A stretch of DNA of 64,000 nt from Bacteroidales bacterium (GCA_030656615.1 JAUSOY010000083.1:172522-236521); one strand, 5' to 3'; positions 20,063 to 35,702 are shown, counted from the stretch's first letter. The notes: generated by a model not told the origin, from the letters alone. Numbers and translations are program-made.

Positions 20063-21237
20063 TCTTGGATTTTTTCAGGGTATAAAAGGTAGTGGGCACG
20101 AAGTATTCTATAGGCCTCCAGATCTTTATTCCAACTCTCACGGATTTTATCTTCTGACCAATTGTTCATAATTTGTTCACGCAATTCGTTGGTACCAGCA
20201 AGTTTATCAAAAAAATCAGGCCGCGTAATAAAAGTGATTTTCCCTTTTGAAAGTTGATGATATTGCAGAAGATATTTAAGACTAAATGTTTCTTTTCTCG
20301 AGGTTTTGCTGAGATCGCTTCCAAAGCATTTTTTATCTTGATGTATTGGTTTAATGCTACCCGATGATGTTTCGGGTGTAAACGAATATTCTCCAAAAAT
20401 GGGATTGGGATAACCGATTACCTGGAAAGCCTTATCAGTTCCTCTTCCAACACTAAAGTCAGTACCCTCAAAAAAACAGAGCGATGCATACAGTCTGATT
20501 GATAGATCGTTCGGCAGGCTTGGCGATGGCGCTTCAGGAATCTGGTAGGCATATTGATGATAATATCCGGGCATCTTTATGATTGTCAGCTTACATTTTT
20601 TTTCACCATCAAGCCATCCTTCTTCATTAATCATTAGAGCAAGTTCACCCACAGTGAGGCCGTAAACAACCGGGATGGGATGCATTCCCACGAAAGAACG
20701 AAAGTCTGATTTTAATACAGGTCCATCGAAATAGTCGCCCAATGGATTGGGTCTGTCAAGGATCATTAGAGGGATTTCTGCTTCTGCACAGGCTTCCATC
20801 ACATAATGCAGCGTTGATATATACGTGTAAAACCGCACGCCAACATCCTGAATATCATAAACCATTAAATCGATGCCCTTTAGTTGTACGATGGATGGTT
20901 TTTTATTTTTTCCAAAGAGTGAAATCAAAGGGATGCCGGTTTTGGGATCTGTTTCGTCCTTAATTTCCTCTCCATAACCTGCTTTTCCTCTGAATCCGTG
21001 TTCCGGAGCGAAGATTTTAACAATACTCATTTTTGCTGAAAGCAATGTGTCGATCAGATGCGTATTATTTAAACGGGCAGAGTGATTCGCAACAATACCC
21101 AGTTTTTTAGTCGCAAGAAGTGGAAAATATTCCTCTGTGGAATAATCAGCCGGATAAATCCCCCTGTGTTGAGAGAAAAGACTTGATGACACGAATAAAA
21201 ATACGATTAAAATAAGGAGGAGACGATGAGTTTTCAT
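20050..21237 (-). CDS. namZ: DUF1343 family protein (exo-beta-N-acetylmuramidase NamZ-like)
   Basis: The ATG at 21237 gives MKTHRLLLILIVFLF with a signal peptide. The segments LGIVANHSA, FAPEHGFRG, DIQDVGVRFYTYISTL and RPNP are typical of DUF1343. Confidence 0.8.
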   Translation of the reverse strand: MKTHRLLLILIVFLFVSSSLFSQHRGIYPADYSTEEYFPLLATKKLGIVANHSARLNNTHLIDTLLSAKMSIVKIFAPEHGFRGKAGYGEEIKDETDPKTGIPLISLFGKNKKPSIVQLKGIDLMVYDIQDVGVRFYTYISTLHYVMEACAEAEIPLMILDRPNPLGDYFDGPVLKSDFRSFVGMHPIPVVYGLTVGELALMINEEGWLDGEKKCKLTIIKMPGYYHQYAYQIPEAPSPSLPNDLSIRLYASLCFFEGTDFSVGRGTDKAFQVIGYPNPIFGEYSFTPETSSGSIKPIHQDKKCFGSDLSKTSRKETFSLKYLLQYHQLSKGKITFITRPDFFDKLAGTNELREQIMNNWSEDKIRESWNKDLEAYRILRAHYLLYPEKIQECHH

Positions 21238-23485: not shown

Positions 23486-24991
23486 ATGGAAAAGAAAATC
23501 AATAACAGGAAACCGTATCTTAACTGGTTATTCTTTGGTGCCACCGTAATCGTGGTCTTTCTGCTGGGTTTACTCGCTTCAAGCATTGTAGAACGTAGAG
23601 CAGAAACGGAATTTGTTTATAAACCCAAGGTAAAAGTTAGTGCTACAGAAGCAAGAAACTGGGTTTGGGGAGAAAATTTCCCGCGTACCTATCAGAGTTG
23701 GTTACAAACATCGGATACAACTTTCCGGAGTAAGTACGATGGATCAGCAACCATCGATTTTTTGGCAGAGGATCCCCGACTGGTCGTTTTATGGGCTGGT
23801 TATGGTTTTTCAAAATCGTATAATCAGGGGCGTGGTCATTATTACGCCATTACAGATGTTTGGAATTCTCTTCGTACCGGTGGTCCCACGGGCCCCGAAG
23901 ATGGACCTATGCCTTCCACCTGCTGGACTTGCAAAAGCCCTGATGTTCCTCGTCTGATGAAAGAAGTTGGAGTAACCGAATACTATACAGGCAAATGGGC
24001 TAAATATGGTGCTGAGGTTACGAATCCTATTGGTTGTGCCGATTGTCATGATCCTGTGAGTATGAAACTTCAGATTTCACGTCCGGCCCTTATCGAGGCT
24101 TTTAAGCGTCAGGGAAAAGATATTCAAATGGCCACCCATCAGGAAATGCGCTCACTCGTTTGCGCTCAATGCCATGTGGAGTATTATTTCAACAAAAGTG
24201 ATGGCAAGAGTAATTACCTAACCTTCCCCTGGGATAAGGGTAAGACGGTTGAGGATATGGAAGCTTATTATGATGATCTTAATTTTTCAGACTGGACGCA
24301 TACGCTGAGTAAGGCACCAATGCTAAAAGCACAGCACCCGGATTATGAAATTTATTCGATGGGCGTTCATGCAGATAGGGGCGTTTCTTGTGCAGATTGT
24401 CATATGCCATATAAGTCGGAAGGTGGACAAAAGTACACGGATCATCATATTCAAAGTCCACTGAATAATGTTGCAAATTCATGTCAGGTTTGCCATAGGG
24501 AAGAAACCTCGAAACTTATCGCCAATGTTTTTGAACGTCAGGATAAAATAATTCACAGTCGCAACCGATTGGAAGAATTACTGGTAATGGCTCATGTAGA
24601 AGCAAAAGCGGCTTGGGAAGCTGGTGCAACGGAGACACAGATGACACCAATATTAAAAGGATTGCGGCATGCCCAATGGCGTTGGGATTATGCAGCAGCC
24701 AGTCATGGAGCTTCTTTTCATGCTCCTGTTGAAACACTGAGGGTCATTGCTACCGGAATAGATAAAGCATATGAAACCCGGATTATGCTTAACAGGTTGT
24801 TGTTGAATCTTGGTGTTAAAAATGAAATTCCATATCCCGATATTGCAACAAAAGTTAAAGCACAGGCATTTATTGGTCTTGATATGAAAAAGTTGAATGA
24901 AGAAAAAGCAAACTTTAAAAAGACATTGTTACCCGAATGGATAAGTAAGGCCAACGCGCGTGAATCTTCATATAAAGTGGAATATTTCTAG
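23486..24991 (+). CDS. nrfA: Ammonia-forming cytochrome c nitrite reductase NrfA (pentahaem)
   Basis: Active-site CWTCK (CxxCK) plus four CxxCH motifs (CADCH, CAQCH, CADCH, CQVCH). N-terminal anchor/signal. Confidence 0.93.
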   Translation: MEKKINNRKPYLNWLFFGATVIVVFLLGLLASSIVERRAETEFVYKPKVKVSATEARNWVWGENFPRTYQSWLQTSDTTFRSKYDGSATIDFLAEDPRLVVLWAGYGFSKSYNQGRGHYYAITDVWNSLRTGGPTGPEDGPMPSTCWTCKSPDVPRLMKEVGVTEYYTGKWAKYGAEVTNPIGCADCHDPVSMKLQISRPALIEAFKRQGKDIQMATHQEMRSLVCAQCHVEYYFNKSDGKSNYLTFPWDKGKTVEDMEAYYDDLNFSDWTHTLSKAPMLKAQHPDYEIYSMGVHADRGVSCADCHMPYKSEGGQKYTDHHIQSPLNNVANSCQVCHREETSKLIANVFERQDKIIHSRNRLEELLVMAHVEAKAAWEAGATETQMTPILKGLRHAQWRWDYAAASHGASFHAPVETLRVIATGIDKAYETRIMLNRLLLNLGVKNEIPYPDIATKVKAQAFIGLDMKKLNEEKANFKKTLLPEWISKANARESSYKVEYF

Positions 24992-25013
24992 GTTTATCAT
25001 TTATTGACTTATG

Positions 25014-25048
25014 AAAAGTCTCGGAGATTAAATCTTCGGGACTTTTTT
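25014..25048 (+). terminator. Intrinsic terminator after nrfA
   Basis: 14-bp stem (aaaagtctcggaga/tcttcgggactttt, two G-U pairs), 5-nt loop, then a T run. Confidence 0.6.
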
Positions 25049-25229
25049 GATTGTTAATGCTGGCAAATTACATACATAAGCCTATCTTTGCTTTTTCATC
25101 AGAATTTCTATTAATCTTTAAAATATTTTTTAATGGTGTTTTTTGCAAGTTATTGAAATTCTTGCCTTTTGAATGATCCTAAGATATAGTGTTGATAAAA
25201 GTTTGAAAAAAATGCAATTTTTTTTGCTT

Positions 25230-25265
25230 GGGGGGGGTTACCTTTTGCCCTCTCATCATATTAAT
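25230..25265 (+). promoter_or_regulatory. Conserved 35/36-nt element, copy A (G8-TTACCTTTTGCCCTCTCATCATATTAAT), directly upstream of the ECF sigma gene
   Basis: 34/35 identical (plus one extra G) to the reverse complement of 31772..31806. It ends 7 nt before the first plausible sigma start (GTG at 25273). Confidence 0.6.
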
Positions 25266-25272
25266 AGTAATA

Positions 25273-25860
25273 GTGGTGCATAACTTATCCTCTAATGAGA
25301 TCGTAAATGGCATCCTGAAGAATGATAAAATAGTTCTTCATGTAATTTATCGATCCTATTTTGGACAAGTTTCAAGATATGTTCAAAGAAATCATGGAAG
25401 CATTGAAGACGCACAAGATGTGTTTCAGGAAGCAATCATGGTAATCTTTCAAAAATCGAAAACCACTGAATTTGTTCTTACTTGTTCTTTCAAATCTTTT
25501 CTTTACACAATTGTCAGATACCTGTGGAATGCTGAAGTTTATAAAAAACACAGAACCACAAGGGTTGATGGAGATGATTTTGGTAACTTTGACGAACTGG
25601 AGGATCTTGACCATGATACCATCCGGTTAATCGAAGAAACTGAAACAAAGCGTTTTATACAAAAGCACTTCAGTACCCTTAGTGATAAATGCCAATTACT
25701 TCTGAAACTTTTCATCGACAGGGTTCCGATGAAAGAGATCTCAGACTTGATGGGTATTTCTGAGAAGTTTGTTAAAAAGAAAAAATTTGAATGCAAGGAA
25801 AAATTGATTGCAAGGATCAAAAATGATCCTTTCTATTTGGAATTTTTTAAAGACCTTTAA
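25273..25860 (+). CDS. ECF-type RNA polymerase sigma-70 family factor
   Basis: A region-2-like segment (DAQDVFQEAIMVIFQK...FKSFLYTIVRYLW) and a region-4 HTH (VPMKEISDLMGISEKFVKKKKFECKEKL). There is no in-frame ATG near the 5' end. GTG at 25273 or 25276 is proposed, so the start is uncertain. Confidence 0.75.
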   Translation: MVHNLSSNEIVNGILKNDKIVLHVIYRSYFGQVSRYVQRNHGSIEDAQDVFQEAIMVIFQKSKTTEFVLTCSFKSFLYTIVRYLWNAEVYKKHRTTRVDGDDFGNFDELEDLDHDTIRLIEETETKRFIQKHFSTLSDKCQLLLKLFIDRVPMKEISDLMGISEKFVKKKKFECKEKLIARIKNDPFYLEFFKDL

Positions 25861-25861
25861 C

Positions 25862-26587
25862 ATGATCGAAAAAACTAATAAATATCTTGATGAAGATTTT
25901 TCGGAAAATGAAACCTCTCACGTTCATGAGCGTATAATGAACGAGCAGGCGAATGACCCGGATAATCACCTCAGTAAAATTATCGACGAATCCATAAGCG
26001 ATTGGGATTCGATTCGACTGAGGAATACCCTTAGAAGTATGCAGGATGAATACCGGTCACGACCCAAAATAATTGGAATGATGATCAAACGTAAATGGTA
26101 TCTTGTCGCAGCCTCTATTACGATGGTATTCCTAATGTCTATTCTGGGACTGGGTATGTTAAAACCACCAGCAAGTCCTGAAGATTTATACCGTGATTTT
26201 TATCGGCCAGCAAAACCTTTTATGATTCAGCGTTCACTTGACAATGTCGGTCAGGATTATTTTGCTCAGGCAATGTCTTGTTATTCTACAGGAAAATATT
26301 TTGAGGCAGCAAAATTACTAATTGCGAATCCAAATAATTCTGCTTCGAAGTTTTATGCAGGAATTGCGCTTATGGAACTTGGTGATCAGGAAAAGGCAAT
26401 TCCTTATCTTAATGACGTTGCGCTGGATAATAGCAGTCTTTTTGTTGATCAAGCTGAATGGTATCTGGGTTTAGCTTACCTCATGACGGAGAAACGCGAA
26501 AATGCCCGGAAGCAATTCGAAAAAATCGCGGCCACACAAAATTATTTCAATGACAAGGCTTCAGAAATTCTTGAGCGTTTGAAATAA
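25862..26587 (+). CDS. Single-pass membrane protein with a periplasmic TPR-like domain; putative anti-sigma factor
   Basis: The ATG at 25862 lies 1 nt after the sigma stop. It has an ~85-aa acidic cytoplasmic N-terminus, a TM helix (WYLVAASITMVFLMSILGLGML) and a C-terminal TPR-like helical repeat. There is no zinc (HxxxCxxC) anti-sigma motif. Confidence 0.55.
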   Translation: MIEKTNKYLDEDFSENETSHVHERIMNEQANDPDNHLSKIIDESISDWDSIRLRNTLRSMQDEYRSRPKIIGMMIKRKWYLVAASITMVFLMSILGLGMLKPPASPEDLYRDFYRPAKPFMIQRSLDNVGQDYFAQAMSCYSTGKYFEAAKLLIANPNNSASKFYAGIALMELGDQEKAIPYLNDVALDNSSLFVDQAEWYLGLAYLMTEKRENARKQFEKIAATQNYFNDKASEILERLK

Positions 26588-26714
26588 CTGGATGAAAGTA
26601 ACTTCGTAGGGTTATACGAAAGCTAGCTCCGGTTGAAAGTTTCCTGAAAACACCAGCTTACTAATCATTTCTCAACCGGTTATTAAACTCAATTACCTAC
26701 TTATACGTAGACGG

Positions 26715-26748
26715 CCTCCCGGGATGTAAATCGCGGGAGGTTTTTTTT
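26715..26748 (+). terminator. Intrinsic terminator for the sigma/anti-sigma operon
   Basis: cctcccg ... cgggagg hairpin followed by T8. It lies ~130 nt after the stop at 26587. Confidence 0.65.
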
Positions 26749-27032
26749 ATAATATAAAGCTCCGGATTTGAATCCCTTCCCGATGTTACCATAGCTTATA
26801 ATATACTAACTCCTGCTCTACATACCGATATCAATAAAAGAAGAAGCTGATTTAATCTTAAAACAGACTACGAGCTGGCATTATGGAAATGATTTTATTT
26901 TGATCTGCAATCTAAAACACACCTTTGAGTTTGCAGATTCCTTTCCGAAATTAATAAGACTTATTTGATTATCATCCGGTATTTCAATACATTATATACG
27001 CTTAAGGTAATTGAAAATAGCCAAACCTTGTT

Positions 27033-30000
27033 CTAAGCTTTTCGAATTATATGTCTGTATAAAAAGATACCACCAATTGATAATAGGGATAGAATAATCA
27101 GTATGAAACCATATTGGATATACGGTGATTTGTTTAGAATGACCTCCTGACTTTTTCCAATGGATACGTATGATGACCAGAAATAGGGATGCGATCTAAG
27201 CCGATCCGCTTTCTTCAAATACTCTTTTTTAGCCATCCATAATGCTTCATCTACAGGAATTCCTTTTTTAATTTTTTTATAAAAAAGCTCCATTAATTCA
27301 GAACTTGTTTCATCCTCAGCCTCCCATAAGGTTATAACCATGCTCGGAATTCCAGCAGAGAGGAAACCGCGAGCCAGACTAAATACGCCCTCACCGGAAA
27401 GAATCTTCCCCAATCCCGTATTACAACTGTTTAAGACGATTAGAGAGGCGTTTAACTTTAGGTTGGATATCTCATATGCGTTAAGCTGATTGTCCTCTAC
27501 GCTGTCAGGTTTTGGAGCAAACAACAATTTACTGAATGATGGATTCTGTTCATCAATAATCGTATGGGTTGCCAAGTGAATAATTCTGTAATTACCACAA
27601 TTCTTTCTAAAATTGGCTTCACTGGCTTCCTGCTTCACAAAAACCTGACCTTTTATTATACCTGTTACAATTTCTGCTTCTTTTTCACTGCCATATAATG
27701 GCGGAAGGTTTATGGGTTGACCGGATGTTCCCGAAAGGTAAAAATTATTGAAATCGACCGGGGCAAAGGCTACCAGGTTTTCAAGATTATTGTTTTTTGG
27801 AGCTCTGTCGAAGAAAAGGATGGATGCAAGGTAAGAATATCGTATACAGTTGGTTTGGATGAGATAGCTCAAACTCGAATAATCCGGATTATTCAAGTCT
27901 GTAGGTTTCGATTTAATGAGTGTTTCAAAAGGAATATAAGCAAGGATGCCATCAGGCACAACAATTATTTTTTTATTACCAATCAATGGATTAATGGGTA
28001 AAATCAATTTATCATACAAATACGAGGAAGATTGGACAAAATTTTGAAAAACGATGGAAGGGTCGTCGCTGTTTACTGCCTTTAAATTGCTAACCATACG
28101 TCCGATATGATCCTGGAAGTTTGGGTCGATTTTTTGATCAAAAACTGTAAAAGTATCGTTTGTAACAGCAAAAATGAATAAATCGGAATCCGTAATGCTA
28201 TACTCAAGAATAATTTCGTTGTTCAGTTTTTGCTGAATCTCAGACATTTGTATGCCTTTATTGCCAAAACGTCTGCTATAATATTCGGGGTGATACTCTT
28301 TTATTTGACGATAGAGTGTATCAAGTTGTTTTTCGTTTTCAAATATTTTCTCATTCCATAGTTCTAACTTGGCGGTGCTTGGTTTTATAAGTGCGTTTTC
28401 TTCAGTTACTAATTTTTTATATCCGGCAACTGATTTTTTTAAATCTCTCTCCATTTGAATAAGTTCTTGAGAAATAAGGCCATAGGTGCCTTCTTCAAAA
28501 TCCTGTACCTCCTTAAAAAGAAGAGATGACTTGCTCTTCTCAGCATATCGGAATGCATCTTCGAGGTAGGAAGATTTGCCAGTAACTTGGTGGAGGCTTA
28601 CCAAGGTCCTGATGGCATTTAACAAAACGGTTTTAAAATGGCCAGAGACCTGAATGTTGCTCTCATCATAGGTAAATCCACTACGAATATTATCAAGAAC
28701 CAGTGAAAAGGTATTAAAGGTGCGATCCGAATTTTCCAGATATACCGAATTTTGTGATTTCTGCCACATTCTGTAATACGTTTCTGCTTTTTGCGAGAGA
28801 GCAAACATCATGAAATAATCAGGCATTTGTGTGCTGATTATTGGATTGATGGCTGGGTCCTGAACATTGAAGTCTGAATTCAGAGAAATAATTGCGGCTT
28901 GAAAATTCTGGAGAGCCTTTGCATAATTTTTTTCGTCAAGGTATAGTGTCCCTATTTTAATATAGCAATCTGCAACATCACGGTTTTTCTGACCAAACTG
29001 GGAAATTTGAATTTTTAATGCCTCATAATATTTTTTCAAACCTTCTTGTGTCTTTCCTTTGCTTACCAGATATTCTCCATAGTTTAATTTGCTAAAGGCT
29101 ACTTCCGCATGATTATTCCCAAGAAGCTGATTGGAAAGTAAAATGGATTTTTGAAAATTATTTTCGGCTGCATCATCCATTTTTAAAAACTGATAACACT
29201 TTGCAAGATTTCTATACGATTTTATTGTGTTTGAAGAATTTGGGTCATTGAAAATACAGAGTTTGAAATAGTCGGCAGCTTGTTCATATTCTGATTTTGA
29301 AAAATGAATGTATCCTATATTCTGTAATACATCGTTGATTCTCGGATGATTAGGATTTTTCTTACGTAGAAGTCCGAGTGCTCTGTTATAATAATTGAGA
29401 GCCTTTTCATAATCTGAACGGAGATTATATACTTTTCCCATATTCAGGTATACTATATCCAAATCAGGAAATTCTGAACCATGGGCTTTAATATATAAGT
29501 TCTCAGCCTGAATTAAATACTGGAGTGCCAAATCGTAATTGCTTAATAATAATTCAAGGTTTCCCAAATTCTGGTATGCATGAGCTAGGTCGTTATCTTT
29601 ATAGGTTGTAATATTCAATTTGTCATTTAGAGCTTGCCTGAGATATTCTCTAGATTTGTTATAGTCACCTATACTACCATATAAAATACCGATGTTTTCA
29701 CGAAACTTAGGTAATAAATCATTGTTTTTAACTCGTTTTGAACTTGCTGATTCTATGGCCTTCTCATAGTAATCGATGGCCTTGTCATACTTTTCCTGAT
29801 TCCACGAAATCACACCCAGATTGTTGTATGTGATCGATAAATTGGTATCCTTAGGTCCATATAACTTCAGTTTTAGATCAGCTGAAGCCTGTAAATCCAT
29901 AATGGCCTTATCAATGGAACCGTTGATGTAATTAGCCGTACCCCGTAAATGATATAAGGCAGTATTTAATGAATCTTCATAAACGCCTGATTTTTTCAGT

Positions 30001-30302
30001 ACACTATCGGCTTTATTTAGCCATATCAGGGCTGAAATTGGATCACGCCGATCTTTATGCAGACTGCCAATACACACCAGGCAGCGGGCATATTCATAAT
30101 GGTTCCCGGATGCTCTGTACTTGTTAGAAGCCTGTATATAAGCAATTATTGCGCTATCGGTTTTGCCTTCTTTTTCGTACGATTTTGCATTGTTTAACAG
30201 AATCAGGGCTTCTGTATCTAATGGGTTTTGTTGGGAAAGAAAATCAACGGGAACAAATATTAAAAAAAGAAGAAAGACTATTGTTTTTAGCGTTGACTTC
30301 AT
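27033..30302 (-). CDS. Exported TPR-repeat CHAT-domain (caspase-like) protease with a C-terminal membrane anchor
   Basis: The ATG at 30302 gives MKSTLKTIVFLLFLIFVPVDFLSQQ (signal peptide). About 500 aa of TPR repeats follow. The C-terminal CHAT domain has a His (IIHLATHTII) and a Cys (LIVLNSCNTGLG) dyad. The terminal TM helix is FILIILSLLSIGGIFLY, followed by a basic tail. Confidence 0.85.
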   Translation of the reverse strand: MKSTLKTIVFLLFLIFVPVDFLSQQNPLDTEALILLNNAKSYEKEGKTDSAIIAYIQASNKYRASGNHYEYARCLVCIGSLHKDRRDPISALIWLNKADSVLKKSGVYEDSLNTALYHLRGTANYINGSIDKAIMDLQASADLKLKLYGPKDTNLSITYNNLGVISWNQEKYDKAIDYYEKAIESASSKRVKNNDLLPKFRENIGILYGSIGDYNKSREYLRQALNDKLNITTYKDNDLAHAYQNLGNLELLLSNYDLALQYLIQAENLYIKAHGSEFPDLDIVYLNMGKVYNLRSDYEKALNYYNRALGLLRKKNPNHPRINDVLQNIGYIHFSKSEYEQAADYFKLCIFNDPNSSNTIKSYRNLAKCYQFLKMDDAAENNFQKSILLSNQLLGNNHAEVAFSKLNYGEYLVSKGKTQEGLKKYYEALKIQISQFGQKNRDVADCYIKIGTLYLDEKNYAKALQNFQAAIISLNSDFNVQDPAINPIISTQMPDYFMMFALSQKAETYYRMWQKSQNSVYLENSDRTFNTFSLVLDNIRSGFTYDESNIQVSGHFKTVLLNAIRTLVSLHQVTGKSSYLEDAFRYAEKSKSSLLFKEVQDFEEGTYGLISQELIQMERDLKKSVAGYKKLVTEENALIKPSTAKLELWNEKIFENEKQLDTLYRQIKEYHPEYYSRRFGNKGIQMSEIQQKLNNEIILEYSITDSDLFIFAVTNDTFTVFDQKIDPNFQDHIGRMVSNLKAVNSDDPSIVFQNFVQSSSYLYDKLILPINPLIGNKKIIVVPDGILAYIPFETLIKSKPTDLNNPDYSSLSYLIQTNCIRYSYLASILFFDRAPKNNNLENLVAFAPVDFNNFYLSGTSGQPINLPPLYGSEKEAEIVTGIIKGQVFVKQEASEANFRKNCGNYRIIHLATHTIIDEQNPSFSKLLFAPKPDSVEDNQLNAYEISNLKLNASLIVLNSCNTGLGKILSGEGVFSLARGFLSAGIPSMVITLWEAEDETSSELMELFYKKIKKGIPVDEALWMAKKEYLKKADRLRSHPYFWSSYVSIGKSQEVILNKSPYIQYGFILIILSLLSIGGIFLYRHIIRKA

Positions 30303-30340
30303 GGTAGTATTCCTTGGTTGTGGTTTGGCTTGAGTAATAG

Positions 30341-30348
30341 CAAAGCTA
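30341..30348 (-). promoter_or_regulatory. Bacteroidota -7 box (TAnnTTTG) for the CHAT gene
   Basis: TAGCTTTG on the minus strand, 39 nt upstream of the ATG at 30302 and downstream of the hairpin at 30381..30416. Confidence 0.4.
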
Positions 30349-30380
30349 AGAAAAAATAAAGTCAGATTTTTGAGCTGATC

Positions 30381-30416
30381 AAAAAAAGGCGGCTCATCAT
30401 ATGAAACCGCCTTTTT
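30381..30416. terminator. Bidirectional terminator-like hairpin between the T9SS gene and the CHAT gene
   Basis: aaaaaaaggcgg-(14-nt loop)-ccgccttttt. On the minus strand it follows the stop at 30433 and is followed by T7. Confidence 0.6.
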
Positions 30417-30432
30417 AAACAAACTGTTTTTG

Positions 30433-31662
30433 TTATTTGCTGATTAAAAGTCCTCCAGAAAAGCTTGATGTGGAGGTGATAATTTTGTAAATATATCTTC
30501 CCTGACGCAATTGACCCAACTGAATATCAATTGAATTGATGCCCTCCTGCAAATATTGATTGTTTAAAATTAATACTTTAGCGCCCTGCAGATTATACAA
30601 TTCAATATTACACGTGGTATTTGTGAAACTGTTAATCTCAAGGGTAGCAAGTTGAGTTGCTGGATTTGGATAAATAATGTGACTTAGATTCGCGTTTTCT
30701 TTCCAGCCAATAGCAGGTGTTGAGAATTTGAAACCTTCGATGAGTCTGCCACTTACATCGATAACATGACTTTCGATGCCTATATTCAATCCAATACTAT
30801 TGTCATTAGAGAATTCGGCTGTTGTTCTTCCAGCAATAGTAATGAGCGCCTCGTTGTTAAAACAACTAATGCCATGTGCAGTAAGGTCATTCCATGAAAT
30901 TCGTACCTGACCGTTTAAAATATTGAATTGAAGATCGGATAGATCCGACCTTATGTCCGTTATTTCGAAGGCTTTGGTATTGTATTCGAAAACGAGCCCC
31001 ATACCGCTAATCATCATTGAATTGGCTGCATAAACAGGAATTTCTATGTTTTCGAGTGAACGGACTTCCAACGTGCCATTGGTTTCGTTCAGCAAGGCCA
31101 TTCCTTGTTTTGTTAAATTTGGTTGGAAACTACCATTAACATCACCTGTTGAGGTTCCTCCGAGGTTGGTACCTGTTTTTCCACCTGCAACAAAGGTCGT
31201 GGTTGGAAATTCCCACGGTCCGGCTGAAAAAGGTGTTCCTGCAAGAAAATACCCAACAGTAATAGCGGTATAATCGGCCCAGGTAACAGCTCCATCGGCG
31301 TTGACATCAGCAGCCAGTAGTGCTACACCATTTAATGGGGCGATATTGAGGAGGTGGAGAAGCACCAGATAAGAGTCTTCAAAATTGATCCCACCAGCTA
31401 AAGCGTTTGATGTTGCTGAAAGTTTGTAATTTCCGGTATGCACTTCAAAAAAAGTATATTTTCCTGTGGCATCCGTTTGAACAGTCTGGAGTAACTGACC
31501 ATTCATTTTAAGTAGTTTTACGTTTACTCCTTGTAGTGGTTTAGAGGCATCATTGTGATAAAATACATAACCTTCAACAGTATACTGAGCTGCAAAAGCA
31601 CTCATTGAAAATATGACAGCTACCAGGATGGTAACAGTTTTAGTAATAAAATTCTTTTTCAT
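30433..31662 (-). CDS. T9SS-sorted surface protein with CarboxypepD_reg-like, dockerin-like and cohesin-like regions
   Basis: Signal peptide. YTVEGYVFY...GVNVKL...TDATGKYTF is a CarboxypepD_reg-like region. DVNADGAVTWADY is an EF-hand-like dockerin repeat. The C-terminal Por_Secre_tail-like domain runs IYPNPA...YIYKIIT...LLISK. Domain names were recognised by eye. Confidence 0.7.
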   Translation of the reverse strand: MKKNFITKTVTILVAVIFSMSAFAAQYTVEGYVFYHNDASKPLQGVNVKLLKMNGQLLQTVQTDATGKYTFFEVHTGNYKLSATSNALAGGINFEDSYLVLLHLLNIAPLNGVALLAADVNADGAVTWADYTAITVGYFLAGTPFSAGPWEFPTTTFVAGGKTGTNLGGTSTGDVNGSFQPNLTKQGMALLNETNGTLEVRSLENIEIPVYAANSMMISGMGLVFEYNTKAFEITDIRSDLSDLQFNILNGQVRISWNDLTAHGISCFNNEALITIAGRTTAEFSNDNSIGLNIGIESHVIDVSGRLIEGFKFSTPAIGWKENANLSHIIYPNPATQLATLEINSFTNTTCNIELYNLQGAKVLILNNQYLQEGINSIDIQLGQLRQGRYIYKIITSTSSFSGGLLISK

Positions 31663-31771
31663 TGGATTAACTTGTTAAGCATTAACTGAGTTTTTCTTGA
31701 CCATTTGTACGGAAGAATGACAAATAGGGTTCGATTATTTTTCAGGTAATCATTTATCGCCCTTCAAGTAC

Positions 31772-31806
31772 ATTAATATGATGAGATGGCAAAAGGTAAC
31801 CCCCCC
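31772..31806 (-). promoter_or_regulatory. Conserved 35-nt element, copy B (G7-TTACCTTTTGCCATCTCATCATATTAAT on the minus strand)
   Basis: Near-identical to 25230..25265 in inverted orientation. It lies 110 nt upstream of the ATG at 31662. Confidence 0.6.
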
Positions 31807-32001
31807 TCAGGCACTTTTTTTATTAAAAAACGAAAATAATTTCTAATTATCTGAAAATCAGACATGAAAAAAACTGGTATTTTTTTAAAATGAGACAATA
31901 AAACTGAGTGAATTTGAATTTTGAATGATTTTTATCGAAGATTTATTTAGAGGAAGAAAAAAAGTAACTGATAACTTGGTTTTTATACAATAGAAATTTT
32001 G

Positions 32002-32009
32002 TACCTTTG
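32002..32009 (+). promoter_or_regulatory. Bacteroidota -7 box (TAnnTTTG) for rpsU
   Basis: TACCTTTG located 45 nt upstream of the ATG at 32054. Confidence 0.45.
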
Positions 32010-32053
32010 TGCCTCAAATTGTATATCCATTTAACGAAAACGAGGTATTTGAA

Positions 32054-32248
32054 ATGATTATCATTCCTGTAAAAGAAGGCGAAAGCATTGATCGCGCCCT
32101 GAAAAAACTCAAACGTAAATTTGAGAAAACCGGTGTTGTTAGAGAACTCCGTGATCGACAGAAGTTCACGAAACCCAGTGTTAGACAGCGCATGCAGTAT
32201 TTGAAGGCGGTGTATATTCAGAATTTGCGTCAAGAGGCCGAAGCCTGA
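32054..32248 (+). CDS. rpsU: 30S ribosomal protein S21
   Basis: 64 aa from MIIIPVKEGESIDRALKKLKRKFEKTGVVRELRDRQKFTKPSVRQR, the canonical S21 sequence. The upstream extension of the ORF track was rejected. Confidence 0.9.
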   Translation: MIIIPVKEGESIDRALKKLKRKFEKTGVVRELRDRQKFTKPSVRQRMQYLKAVYIQNLRQEAEA

Positions 32249-32265
32249 TTTTACGTAAAATGATT

Positions 32266-32302
32266 AAAAGCGGGGAAGATAGCTATCTTCCCCGCTTTTT
32301 TT
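32266..32302 (+). terminator. Intrinsic terminator of rpsU
   Basis: Perfect 11-bp stem gcggggaagat/atcttccccgc, a 4-nt loop and T7. Confidence 0.85.
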
Positions 32303-34817: not shown

Positions 34818-35702
34818 ATGCTCGATTCTTTTCTAAATTACATTAGCAATGAAAAAAGGTATTCAAAACATACCGTTTGTGCGTATGCTGCTGACATTTC
34901 GTCTTTTTTAACGTTTTTAGAACATTCGTATGATATTGAAAAGCCTGAGGAGACCGAGGCGATGCATATTCGTTCATGGATGGTTGAATTATCGGAGACC
35001 AAAATATCTTCACGAAGTATATGTCGTAAACTGGCATCGGTTAAGGCTTTTTTTAAATTTCACAAAAAAACCGGACGTATTGATGCTAATCCAGCATTGA
35101 AAATTCAGGCACCCAAGGTTTCCGTGAGACTTCCAGGTTATATTGATGAAAAAGGGATGGAATGGTTAATCATGAATCAGGAAAAGACGGAAAGTTTTGA
35201 GTCAATTCGAAATATGCTAATCATAGAGATGTTGTATCAAACAGGCATGCGGTTATCAGAGTTGGTGAATCTGAGTTGGGACGATGTTGATACTACAAAA
35301 GCCTCTATAAGAGTTATGGGAAAAAGGCGAAAGGAGAGAATAATTCCCATTATTGAACCACTACAGGAATTAATCGTTAAATATCGAGATTGTGTGTCTT
35401 CGCATTTTGGAAGTAATGAAAAGCATGCTTCAATATTTTTAACCGATAAGGGCAATAAAATTTATCCTAAACTTGTTTATAGGATAGTTAATTCGTACCT
35501 TAGCATGATAACCTCTATGGAGAAAAAAAGCCCCCATGTATTAAGGCATACTTTTGCCACGCATATGCTCAATTCCGGAGCCGATCTCAATGCTATTAAA
35601 GAGATTCTCGGACATTCGAGCCTTGCGGCTACTCAGGTGTATACTCATGTCTCAATAGAAAAACTCAGGAAAATTTATAAACAAGCCCATCCAAAGGCGT
35701 AA
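34818..35702 (+). CDS. Tyrosine recombinase, XerC/XerD-like
   Basis: 294 aa. The N-terminal SAM-like domain is FLNYISNEKRYSKHTVCAYAADI. The catalytic region contains GMRLSEL, HVLRHTFATH and LGHSSLAATQVYTH (R..HxxR..H..Y). Confidence 0.8.
   Translation: MLDSFLNYISNEKRYSKHTVCAYAADISSFLTFLEHSYDIEKPEETEAMHIRSWMVELSETKISSRSICRKLASVKAFFKFHKKTGRIDANPALKIQAPKVSVRLPGYIDEKGMEWLIMNQEKTESFESIRNMLIIEMLYQTGMRLSELVNLSWDDVDTTKASIRVMGKRRKERIIPIIEPLQELIVKYRDCVSSHFGSNEKHASIFLTDKGNKIYPKLVYRIVNSYLSMITSMEKKSPHVLRHTFATHMLNSGADLNAIKEILGHSSLAATQVYTHVSIEKLRKIYKQAHPKA

Follow-up and report, generated by a model that had tools for sequence, protein, structure and literature searches.

A candidate autoregulated ECF promoter pair at a sigma/anti-sigma/TPR-CHAT locus in Bacteroidales

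Results

The window, by which we mean the whole 64-kb stretch of DNA that was analysed, carries a module of four genes (sigma, anti-sigma, CHAT and T9SS cargo) bracketed by two copies of a short element. The ECF-type sigma factor gene (25273..25860, plus strand, or from 25276) matches Pfam Sigma70_r2 and the NCBIfam sigma70-ECF model TIGR02937 (E 1.3e-18; 67 bits against a cut-off of 42.9, over residues 24-179), and its product has the ECF layout, with regions 2 and 4 only in about 190 aa; region 4.2 reads SEKFVKKKKFECKEKL. One nucleotide past the sigma stop codon is the ATG (25862) of a gene for a putative anti-sigma factor of 242 aa (25862..26587, plus strand), which lies directly downstream of sigma in relatives too. 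The protein has weak Pfam TPR matches and a hydrophobic window, and is predicted to cross the membrane once, at about aa 79-100, with its N-terminus in the cytoplasm and a TPR domain in the periplasm. An intrinsic-terminator-like hairpin followed by T8 (26713..26749, plus strand; RNA fold of -22.6 kcal/mol) closes the sigma/anti-sigma operon.

The other two genes of the module are on the minus strand. The first encodes a TPR-CHAT protein of about 1090 aa (27033..30302; Pfam CHAT 5.2e-54, TPR_12 1.4e-50) whose likely start is the ATG at 30302, within an ORF that extends to 30422. Its layout, as judged in part from hydrophobic windows, is an N-terminal signal/anchor, a TPR array, the CHAT domain and a C-terminal TM helix, and the caspase-like dyad is present as a His (in IIHLATH) and a Cys (in LNSCNTG). 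The second is a T9SS cargo gene (30433..31662; 409 aa; Pfam Por_Secre_tail 3.4e-11 and NCBIfam TIGR04183), whose product has a signal peptide, a CarboxypepD_reg/SdrD_B-like domain and a C-terminal T9SS sorting domain. The module is flanked by nrfH/nrfA at the left and by rpsU, a tyrosine recombinase gene and hpf at the right. We note that the recombinase gene (34818-35702, plus strand) is found between rpsU and hpf (S30AE) in the window and in the related loci L001 and L002 alike, and that the rpsU-recombinase-hpf stretch looks like a conserved housekeeping neighbourhood and not part of a mobile element.

A sequence-only reading of this DNA had described two near-identical, inverted copies of the element as the only ones present, and our searches bear out the coordinates and differences that it gave. 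Copy A (P-sigma; 25230..25265, plus strand) is GGGGGGGGTTACCTTTTGCCCTCTCATCATATTAAT, or G8-TTACCTTTTGCCCTCTCATCATATTAAT, and is 36 nt long with its run of eight Gs; copy B (P-cargo; 31772..31806, minus strand) is GGGGGGGTTACCTTTTGCCATCTCATCATATTAAT, or G7-TTACCTTTTGCCATCTCATCATATTAAT, and is 35 nt long with its run of seven. One substitution (C/A) and one extra G separate the two, which together make up the longest inverted repeat of the region (35 nt, 97% complementary, 6506 nt apart). Within copy A, the G8 run is at 25230-25237, the -35 block GGGTTACC at 25235-25242, a 17-nt spacer at 25242-25258 and the -10 block TATTAAT at 25259-25265; within copy B, the G7 run is at 31800-31806, the -35 block GGGTTACC at 31795-31802 and the -10 block TATTAAT at 31772-31778. 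When up to three mismatches were allowed, the whole element gave 2 matches in the 64-kb window against 0.00 expected from 100 shuffles, in keeping with the claim that the window holds no further copy, and extra matches to the 14-nt core at the same tolerance were at chance level. The runs inside copies A and B are also the only two G/C homopolymers of at least 7 in the 64 kb. With the position weight matrix (PWM) built from relatives, described below, copy A scores 28.5 and copy B 26.3; a third match (score 17.5), at 20739 on the minus strand within a 398-aa ORF, reads GGCGAC where the motif has GGTTAC and was set aside as a false positive.

Copy A ends 7 nt before the in-frame GTG at 25273; for copy B, the distance to the ATG (31662) of the T9SS-CTD gene is 109 nt. 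We considered an RNA element in the 112-nt leader of the cargo gene and dropped the idea, as folding of the leader was no better than that of shuffles (z = -0.9). An Rfam scan of 24900-32300 at E up to 1 returned no match, and a scan for TTGACA/TATAAT sigma-70 promoters is uninformative for this phylum.

The position of copy A bears on where the sigma gene begins. The in-frame GTGs at 25273 and 25276 begin 8 and 11 nt, respectively, after the last base of the -10 block. The N-terminus of the homologs aligns to the equivalent of 25273/25276, with 25276 as the conserved start (MHNLSS...); this GTG is the codon kept in the relative whose sigma is 80% identical (L001), and another relative (L026) has ATG-GTG-CAT where the window reads GTG-GTG-CAT. 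An upstream TTG at 25228 precedes the promoter, and the N-terminal extension that it would add is not conserved. Because the homologs begin at the equivalent of 25273/25276 and the promoter falls inside that extension, the TTG is not the true start of sigma, as the sequence-only reading had argued. Across the family, start codons lie 38-42 nt past the first G of GGTTAC, and this spacing implies that the sigma mRNA would be leaderless, or would have a leader of a few nucleotides, family-wide. Leaderless transcripts and small local regulons are common and documented for ECF systems (bioRxiv 10.1101/2020.06.23.168245).

The window sigma has few close homologs. In L001 the gene order and flanks are as in the window, the element precedes both sigma (G8) and cargo (G9), and its spacer equals that of the window save at one and the same variable position. 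Taken together, the two copies of the window and the two of L001 agree at 34 of 35 positions, between flanks that have diverged, and the spacer is 17 nt in all four. A second group of loci (L002-L005; sigma 42% identical) has the module between the same flanking genes with all four genes on one strand, in the order cargo, CHAT, sigma, anti-sigma; here G6-TTACCTTT...CACTAAT is found before cargo and again before sigma, as direct repeats whose spacers differ. A third group (L008-L012; sigma 50% identical) has G9-TTACCTTTTATCAAAAATATACACTAAT before the sigma gene. The sigma-plus-cargo pattern is repeated, with G5-G9, in metagenomic sequences (L095/L100, which are on one 110-kb contig, and L101), and a copy before a homolog of the T9SS cargo gene is present in L001, L002, L095/L108 and L101/L123. 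The module adjoins nrfHA in the window, L001, L002-L005 and L008, and adjoins rpsU wherever the contig covers that side.

A profile search of one genome per species, a set in which the genus of the window has no representative and the best match was 43% identical, yielded 80 sigma-homolog loci from Bacteroidales/Marinilabiliales, Prolixibacteraceae, Saprospiraceae, Chitinophagaceae and Sphingobacteriaceae. Of 79 non-redundant loci, 54 have the motif before the sigma homolog, across several Bacteroidota orders. GGT[T/A]AC was located 25-55 nt, and mostly 35-42 nt, before sigma residue 1 in 55 non-redundant loci, and the start of GGTTAC ranged from 29 to 52 nt. Alignment of 55 sigma-upstream instances gives GGGTTAC(C/T)TTTT, a spacer and (G)TATTAA(T/A). 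Most of the spacers (39) are 16 nt long, with 15 of 17 nt and one of 18 nt, and GGGTTAC and ATTAA hardly vary (1.5-1.8 bits per position in the PWM of these 55 instances). At a two-block PWM score of at least 16, we found 124 sites in 2.43 Mb of loci as against 2 in shuffled sequence. Once duplicates are removed, 54 of the sites stand before a sigma gene; the further copies in these loci, about 55, are second or occasionally third ones, and all of them point into a gene. Almost all loci with a sigma copy have such a further copy. A metagenome scan with the pattern alone gave 30 loci, many of them with the motif directly before homologs of sigma, cargo, a double-glycine (GG) peptide or a lipoprotein. 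The triad of sigma, TPR anti-sigma and TPR-CHAT is conserved in almost every locus with a sigma identity of about 34% or more. About 25 of the 79 sigma homologs have no motif within 160 nt, and some of these are downstream of CHAT in one operon.

The form of the -35 block varies with the clade. A G run of G5-G9 is confined to the subfamily whose region 4.2 reads (S/T)E(K/S)FVKK(K/R)K, without a one-residue insertion that other clades have; the rest of the family has GGG only. EKFVKK(K/R)K is paired with a -35 of G5-G9 followed by TTACC (ESFVKKKK in the L099/L100 pair), EKYAKKRK with GGGTTACC, and NAKNQKYKC with GGGTTACT. It fits this pattern that the G run could be an extended -35 contact, and shared ancestry would explain the pairing of region 4.2 with the -35 equally well. 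The window departs from the canonical ECF sequence, with GGGTTACC where a -35 would contain AAC and TATTAAT where a -10 would contain CGT; a consensus of their own is common among ECF groups, so the departure concerns the variant and not the kind. GGGTAAC, which holds the canonical AAC, is found in some relatives (L006, L013, L014, L016 and L053).

We also compared spacers between the copies of a genome. Identity was 0.405 within genomes and 0.358 between genomes, and 114 of 10000 permutations reached the observed value. This weak signal is driven by a few genomes, and we do not use it as evidence for concerted evolution of the spacer across the family. For the invariant spacer shared by the window and L001, the likely causes are selection on the spacer within this lineage or gene conversion.

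The gene served by the second copy differs by clade. The clade of the window has this copy before the T9SS cargo gene. In Marinilabiliales/Prolixibacteraceae the target gene encodes a peptide of 30-70 aa whose double-glycine leader reads ...EVLSxxEMxxVRGG. At least 17 loci have such a peptide gene, and in two of these (L026 and L006) the peptide gene is followed by that of a C39-peptidase ABC exporter. One such peptide scores above the NCBIfam bacteriocin-leader cut-off. A gene for a GG-leader peptide was searched for in the window, including the 445-nt gap at 26588-27032, and none was found. In Chitinophagales/Sphingobacteriales the target is a lipoprotein of 62-92 aa, and the second copy is back-to-back with the sigma copy, about 35 nt away.

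Several observations on these targets may be recorded here. Most relatives in Bacteroidales/Prolixibacteraceae have a GG-peptide gene behind the second copy, as in L016-L018, L020, L022-L024, L026, L028, L032-L039, L051, L006 and L110 (for example in L022 at 13083 and in L026 at 12879, both on the plus strand). The mature parts of the peptides are short, hydrophilic and acidic, often with an ending of the type D-I-(I/F/L), and the peptides look more like signalling peptides than bacteriocins. In a Prolixibacteraceae chromosome (L020, at 11526 and 13766, plus strand) there is a tandem duplication of about 2.2 kb downstream of CHAT, whose unit consists of the promoter, a GG-peptide gene and a gene for a 507-aa anti-sigma-like protein, with identical promoter/peptide units. 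The back-to-back loci of Chitinophagaceae/Sphingobacteriaceae are L060-L093 (for example L077, at 2311 on the minus and 2344 on the plus strand), and no CHAT gene is present within 8 kb in them; the lipoprotein is rich in T, S and D and has a weak match to the NCBIfam model of PG1828-family lipoproteins (E 4e-8, below the cut-off). On five metagenome contigs (L103, L104, L106, L117 and L122) the motif, with a PWM score of about 31, precedes genes for small proteins of 110-113 aa that we judge by eye to be DNA-binding proteins of the LytTR type, and the regulon may include a second transcription factor in some genomes.

The element had been described as unlike the housekeeping box TAnnTTTG, which we take to be the -7 consensus of Bacteroidota housekeeping promoters. 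This is the case, and separate TAnnTTTG boxes were found elsewhere in the locus. Directly after the cargo gene there is a terminator-like hairpin with a T-run (AAAAAGGCGG...CCGCCTTTTTTT; 30381..30416, minus strand; fold of -14.9 kcal/mol), with an equivalent in L001 (-17.8 kcal/mol) and another in L002 that was seen by eye only and not captured by the fold. A housekeeping-type -7 box, TAGCTTTG (30341..30348, minus strand; a candidate for Bacteroidota sigma-A), lies 50 nt upstream of the CHAT ATG, counted from the start of the box to just past the ATG; the box of L001, TAGATTTG, is likewise 50 nt from its CHAT start, and L002 has TAATTTTG. The presence of the hairpin and the box between cargo and CHAT suggests that CHAT is probably a separate unit with a housekeeping-type promoter of its own and constitutive expression, as expected for a sensor or protease component, and copy B would most likely serve only the T9SS cargo gene. 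A further housekeeping-type box, TATCTTTG (25083..25090, plus strand), is found about 190 nt upstream of the sigma start, in surroundings (CATAAGCCTATCTTTG) that are conserved in L001. This box may be a basal sigma promoter that gives a long-leader transcript.

Discussion

We present evidence that the two copies of the element are very probably promoters read by the adjacent ECF sigma factor. RNA polymerase carrying this sigma would recognise in each copy the -35 block GGGTTACC, the 17-nt spacer and the -10 block TATTAAT, the -35 being lengthened upstream by the G run in the lineage of the window. Transcription from copy A would begin 0-5 nt before the sigma start, giving a leaderless or near-leaderless sigma/anti-sigma mRNA and positive autoregulation, and transcription from copy B would reach the T9SS cargo gene through a predicted 5'UTR of about 100 nt. 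Under this model the copies are inverted only because the two transcription units converge. The proposal of the sequence-only reading, that the element is a cognate, autoregulated and near-leaderless ECF promoter that also precedes a second unit, is thus strengthened by the motif in 54 of 79 loci and by the second copies that point into genes; comparison with orthologous loci, which had been suggested as a check, gives a fixed distance of 35-42 nt to the sigma start across orders. The ECF-dependent units would be the sigma/anti-sigma operon and the cargo gene, and the idea of a two-promoter regulon stands within the 64 kb of the window only. We note that several observations sit uneasily with the promoter model. 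About 25 of the 79 sigma homologs have no motif close by, the spacer is nearly unconstrained in the family, so that a plain promoter leaves the invariance of 34 of 35 positions in four copies unexplained, and the conserved housekeeping-type box 190 nt upstream could drive sigma independently. The co-variation of region 4.2 with the -35 is, in addition, confounded by phylogeny.

Well-known autoregulated ECF promoters provide a point of reference. E. coli sigma-E recognises GGAACTT-N16-TCAAA, and in B. subtilis sigma-W recognises TGAAAC-N16-CGTA and sigma-X TGTAAC-N17-CGAC. The element resembles these promoters in its two -35/-10 blocks with a spacer of 16-17 nt, in the presence of one copy at the operon of its own sigma and another at a neighbouring target, and in the small local regulon and the anti-sigma gene co-transcribed with sigma. 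It differs from them in that the family of the window has GGGTTAC(C/T) as its -35 and an A/T-rich TATTAA in place of a CGT-type -10, in the G5-G9 extension of the clade of the window, and in the near-leaderless sigma mRNA, with its GTG or ATG 8-13 nt past the -10. The element had been put forward as a new promoter type. The window indeed has no match to AAC and CGT, and we found no publication that describes the motif; what the element represents is, however, the consensus of one ECF family, some members of which have GGGTAAC. In kind, then, as far as the sequence shows, the two copies form an ordinary pair of autoregulated ECF promoters with a group-specific consensus. A literature search for the GGGTTAC motif or an ECF-CHAT system in Bacteroidota gave nothing specific, and the main text of a 2021 ECF classification (PMC7826278) contains no matching CHAT/TPR group. 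The consensus GGGTTAC(C/T)-N16-17-TATTAA, and a family of ECF, TPR and CHAT proteins with exported-peptide targets, appear to be undescribed.

The poly-G run raises the question of phase variation, which would add to promoter function. Surface-protein genes of Neisseria and Haemophilus have phase-variable poly-G/C tracts between the -35 and the -10, and here too a run of G7-9 adjoins the promoter of a gene for a surface or secreted protein and appears to differ in length between strains. It is nevertheless unlikely, in our judgement, that the run acts as a contingency tract, with slipped-strand changes of length switching or tuning the promoter. Its standing as the site of the only long G/C runs in the 64 kb, its lengths of 8 and 7 in the window, 8 and 9 in L001, 6 and 6 in L002 and 9 in L008, and a difference of one G between near-identical strains (G7 in L099, G8 in L100) would suit such a tract. 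However, the run is upstream of the -35, where it abuts GGTTAC, and is not in the spacer, so that its length leaves the distance between -35 and -10 unchanged; all four L002-type assemblies have G6 and all five L008-type assemblies have G9; the rest of the family works with GGG only; and single-base differences in homopolymers can be assembly errors. We note that the sigma promoters of L099 and L100 also differ at one spacer base, and that this pair is the sole hint of tract instability, or else a homopolymer assembly error.

It is possible, too, that the copies are an operator at which another regulator, a repressor or an activator, coordinates both units, with transcription coming from other promoters such as the box at 25083. 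This would account for the invariance of all 35 nt, spacer included, in four copies from two genomes with diverged flanks, in a family whose spacer is otherwise not conserved, and for the conservation with L001 of the housekeeping-type box upstream of sigma. Yet the motif is asymmetric, with two blocks at the 16-17 nt spacing of a promoter; its instances, about 110 in number, all face the downstream gene; it stands at a constant 35-42 nt from the sigma start across orders, and co-occurs specifically with this sigma family. We therefore regard an operator in place of a promoter as very unlikely. An operator that overlaps the promoter in this lineage could be partly compatible with the promoter model.

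Lastly, it had been suggested that the copies might be inverted repeats that bound a 6.5-kb segment able to invert or move, in which case a site-specific recombinase would act on them as terminal repeats. Bacteroides invertons, at capsule and fimbrial loci, flip a few hundred bp with a promoter and need a dedicated invertase, and the present copies resemble them as short, promoter-associated inverted repeats in a Bacteroidota genome; they differ in that the repeats are themselves the promoters, are 6.5 kb apart, are direct or back-to-back in relatives and have no module-specific recombinase. Although the window and L001 both have the module between inverted copies, and the tyrosine-recombinase gene (34818-35702) is 3 kb to the right, we reject this alternative as exceedingly improbable: the copies are direct in L002-L005 between the same flanks (nrfHA and rpsU) and back-to-back, about 35 nt apart, in Chitinophagales; the rearrangement between L002 and the window flips the sigma/anti-sigma block only and is not the product of copy-copy recombination; the recombinase gene belongs to the conserved rpsU-hpf neighbourhood, also in L002 with its direct repeats, and the module has no recombinase of its own; the orientation in L001 is that of the window; and a flip between identical promoters would presumably have no regulatory effect.

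Returning to the promoter model, we consider how the sigma factor might be controlled. The membrane anti-sigma would hold sigma inactive, the periplasmic TPR-CHAT protease may help to remove the anti-sigma upon a signal, and the freed sigma would raise its own level and that of the cargo. These steps are proposed by analogy with two systems. In DdvS/DdvA of Myxococcus xanthus, an ECF sigma is paired with a TM anti-sigma that has a periplasmic TPR-CHAT module (PMC6061681, PMC11506125). The locus is like DdvS/DdvA in that the genes of an ECF sigma, a single-pass anti-sigma and a periplasmic TPR-CHAT stand side by side, in that sigma would drive its own and neighbouring promoters, and in that regulated proteolysis of the anti-sigma is proposed. 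It is unlike DdvS/DdvA in that anti-sigma and TPR-CHAT are two proteins, the former of 242 aa and with only a small TPR domain, the latter of about 1090 aa and with an intact His/Cys dyad and membrane anchors of its own, and in that the output is T9SS cargo (GG-peptides or lipoproteins in relatives) and not a CBASS/CRISPR island; the phylum differs as well, and the likeness is drawn at the level of architecture. In the second system, the type III-E CRISPR Craspase (Cas7-11 with the TPR-CHAT protein Csx29), the protease cleaves Csx30, and the system encodes an ECF-like sigma (PMC10028731). There, as here, the gene for a TPR-CHAT protease is coupled with those for an ECF-type sigma and an inhibitor protein. 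Unlike Craspase, which is cytoplasmic and RNA-guided, the present locus is without a CRISPR component and its CHAT protein is predicted to be extracytoplasmic.

A more speculative reading, which we hold to be rather unlikely, is that the family represents an undescribed, self-amplifying circuit, widespread in Bacteroidota, in which an exported product is a secreted signal sensed by the TPR domain of the anti-sigma, by TPR-CHAT or by both. Sigma would drive the synthesis of GG-peptides with C39 exporters in most Bacteroidales relatives, or of T9SS cargo in the lineage of the window; sensing of the product in the periplasm would lead the protease to cleave the anti-sigma, and this would close a positive-feedback loop. 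In the lineage of the window, the invariant 17-nt spacer would be an overlapping operator and the variable G5-G9 run would provide tuning through slippage.

For this genome, the analysis gives the correct start of sigma and a local regulon consisting of sigma/anti-sigma and one T9SS cargo gene, and it removes a false lead toward inversion. More broadly, the consensus lets the regulons of a phylum-wide family of ECF sigma factors with TPR anti-sigma and TPR-CHAT proteins be read from sequence alone. The targets in these regulons are small exported products, and this opens both the signal and the part played by the CHAT protease to experiment.
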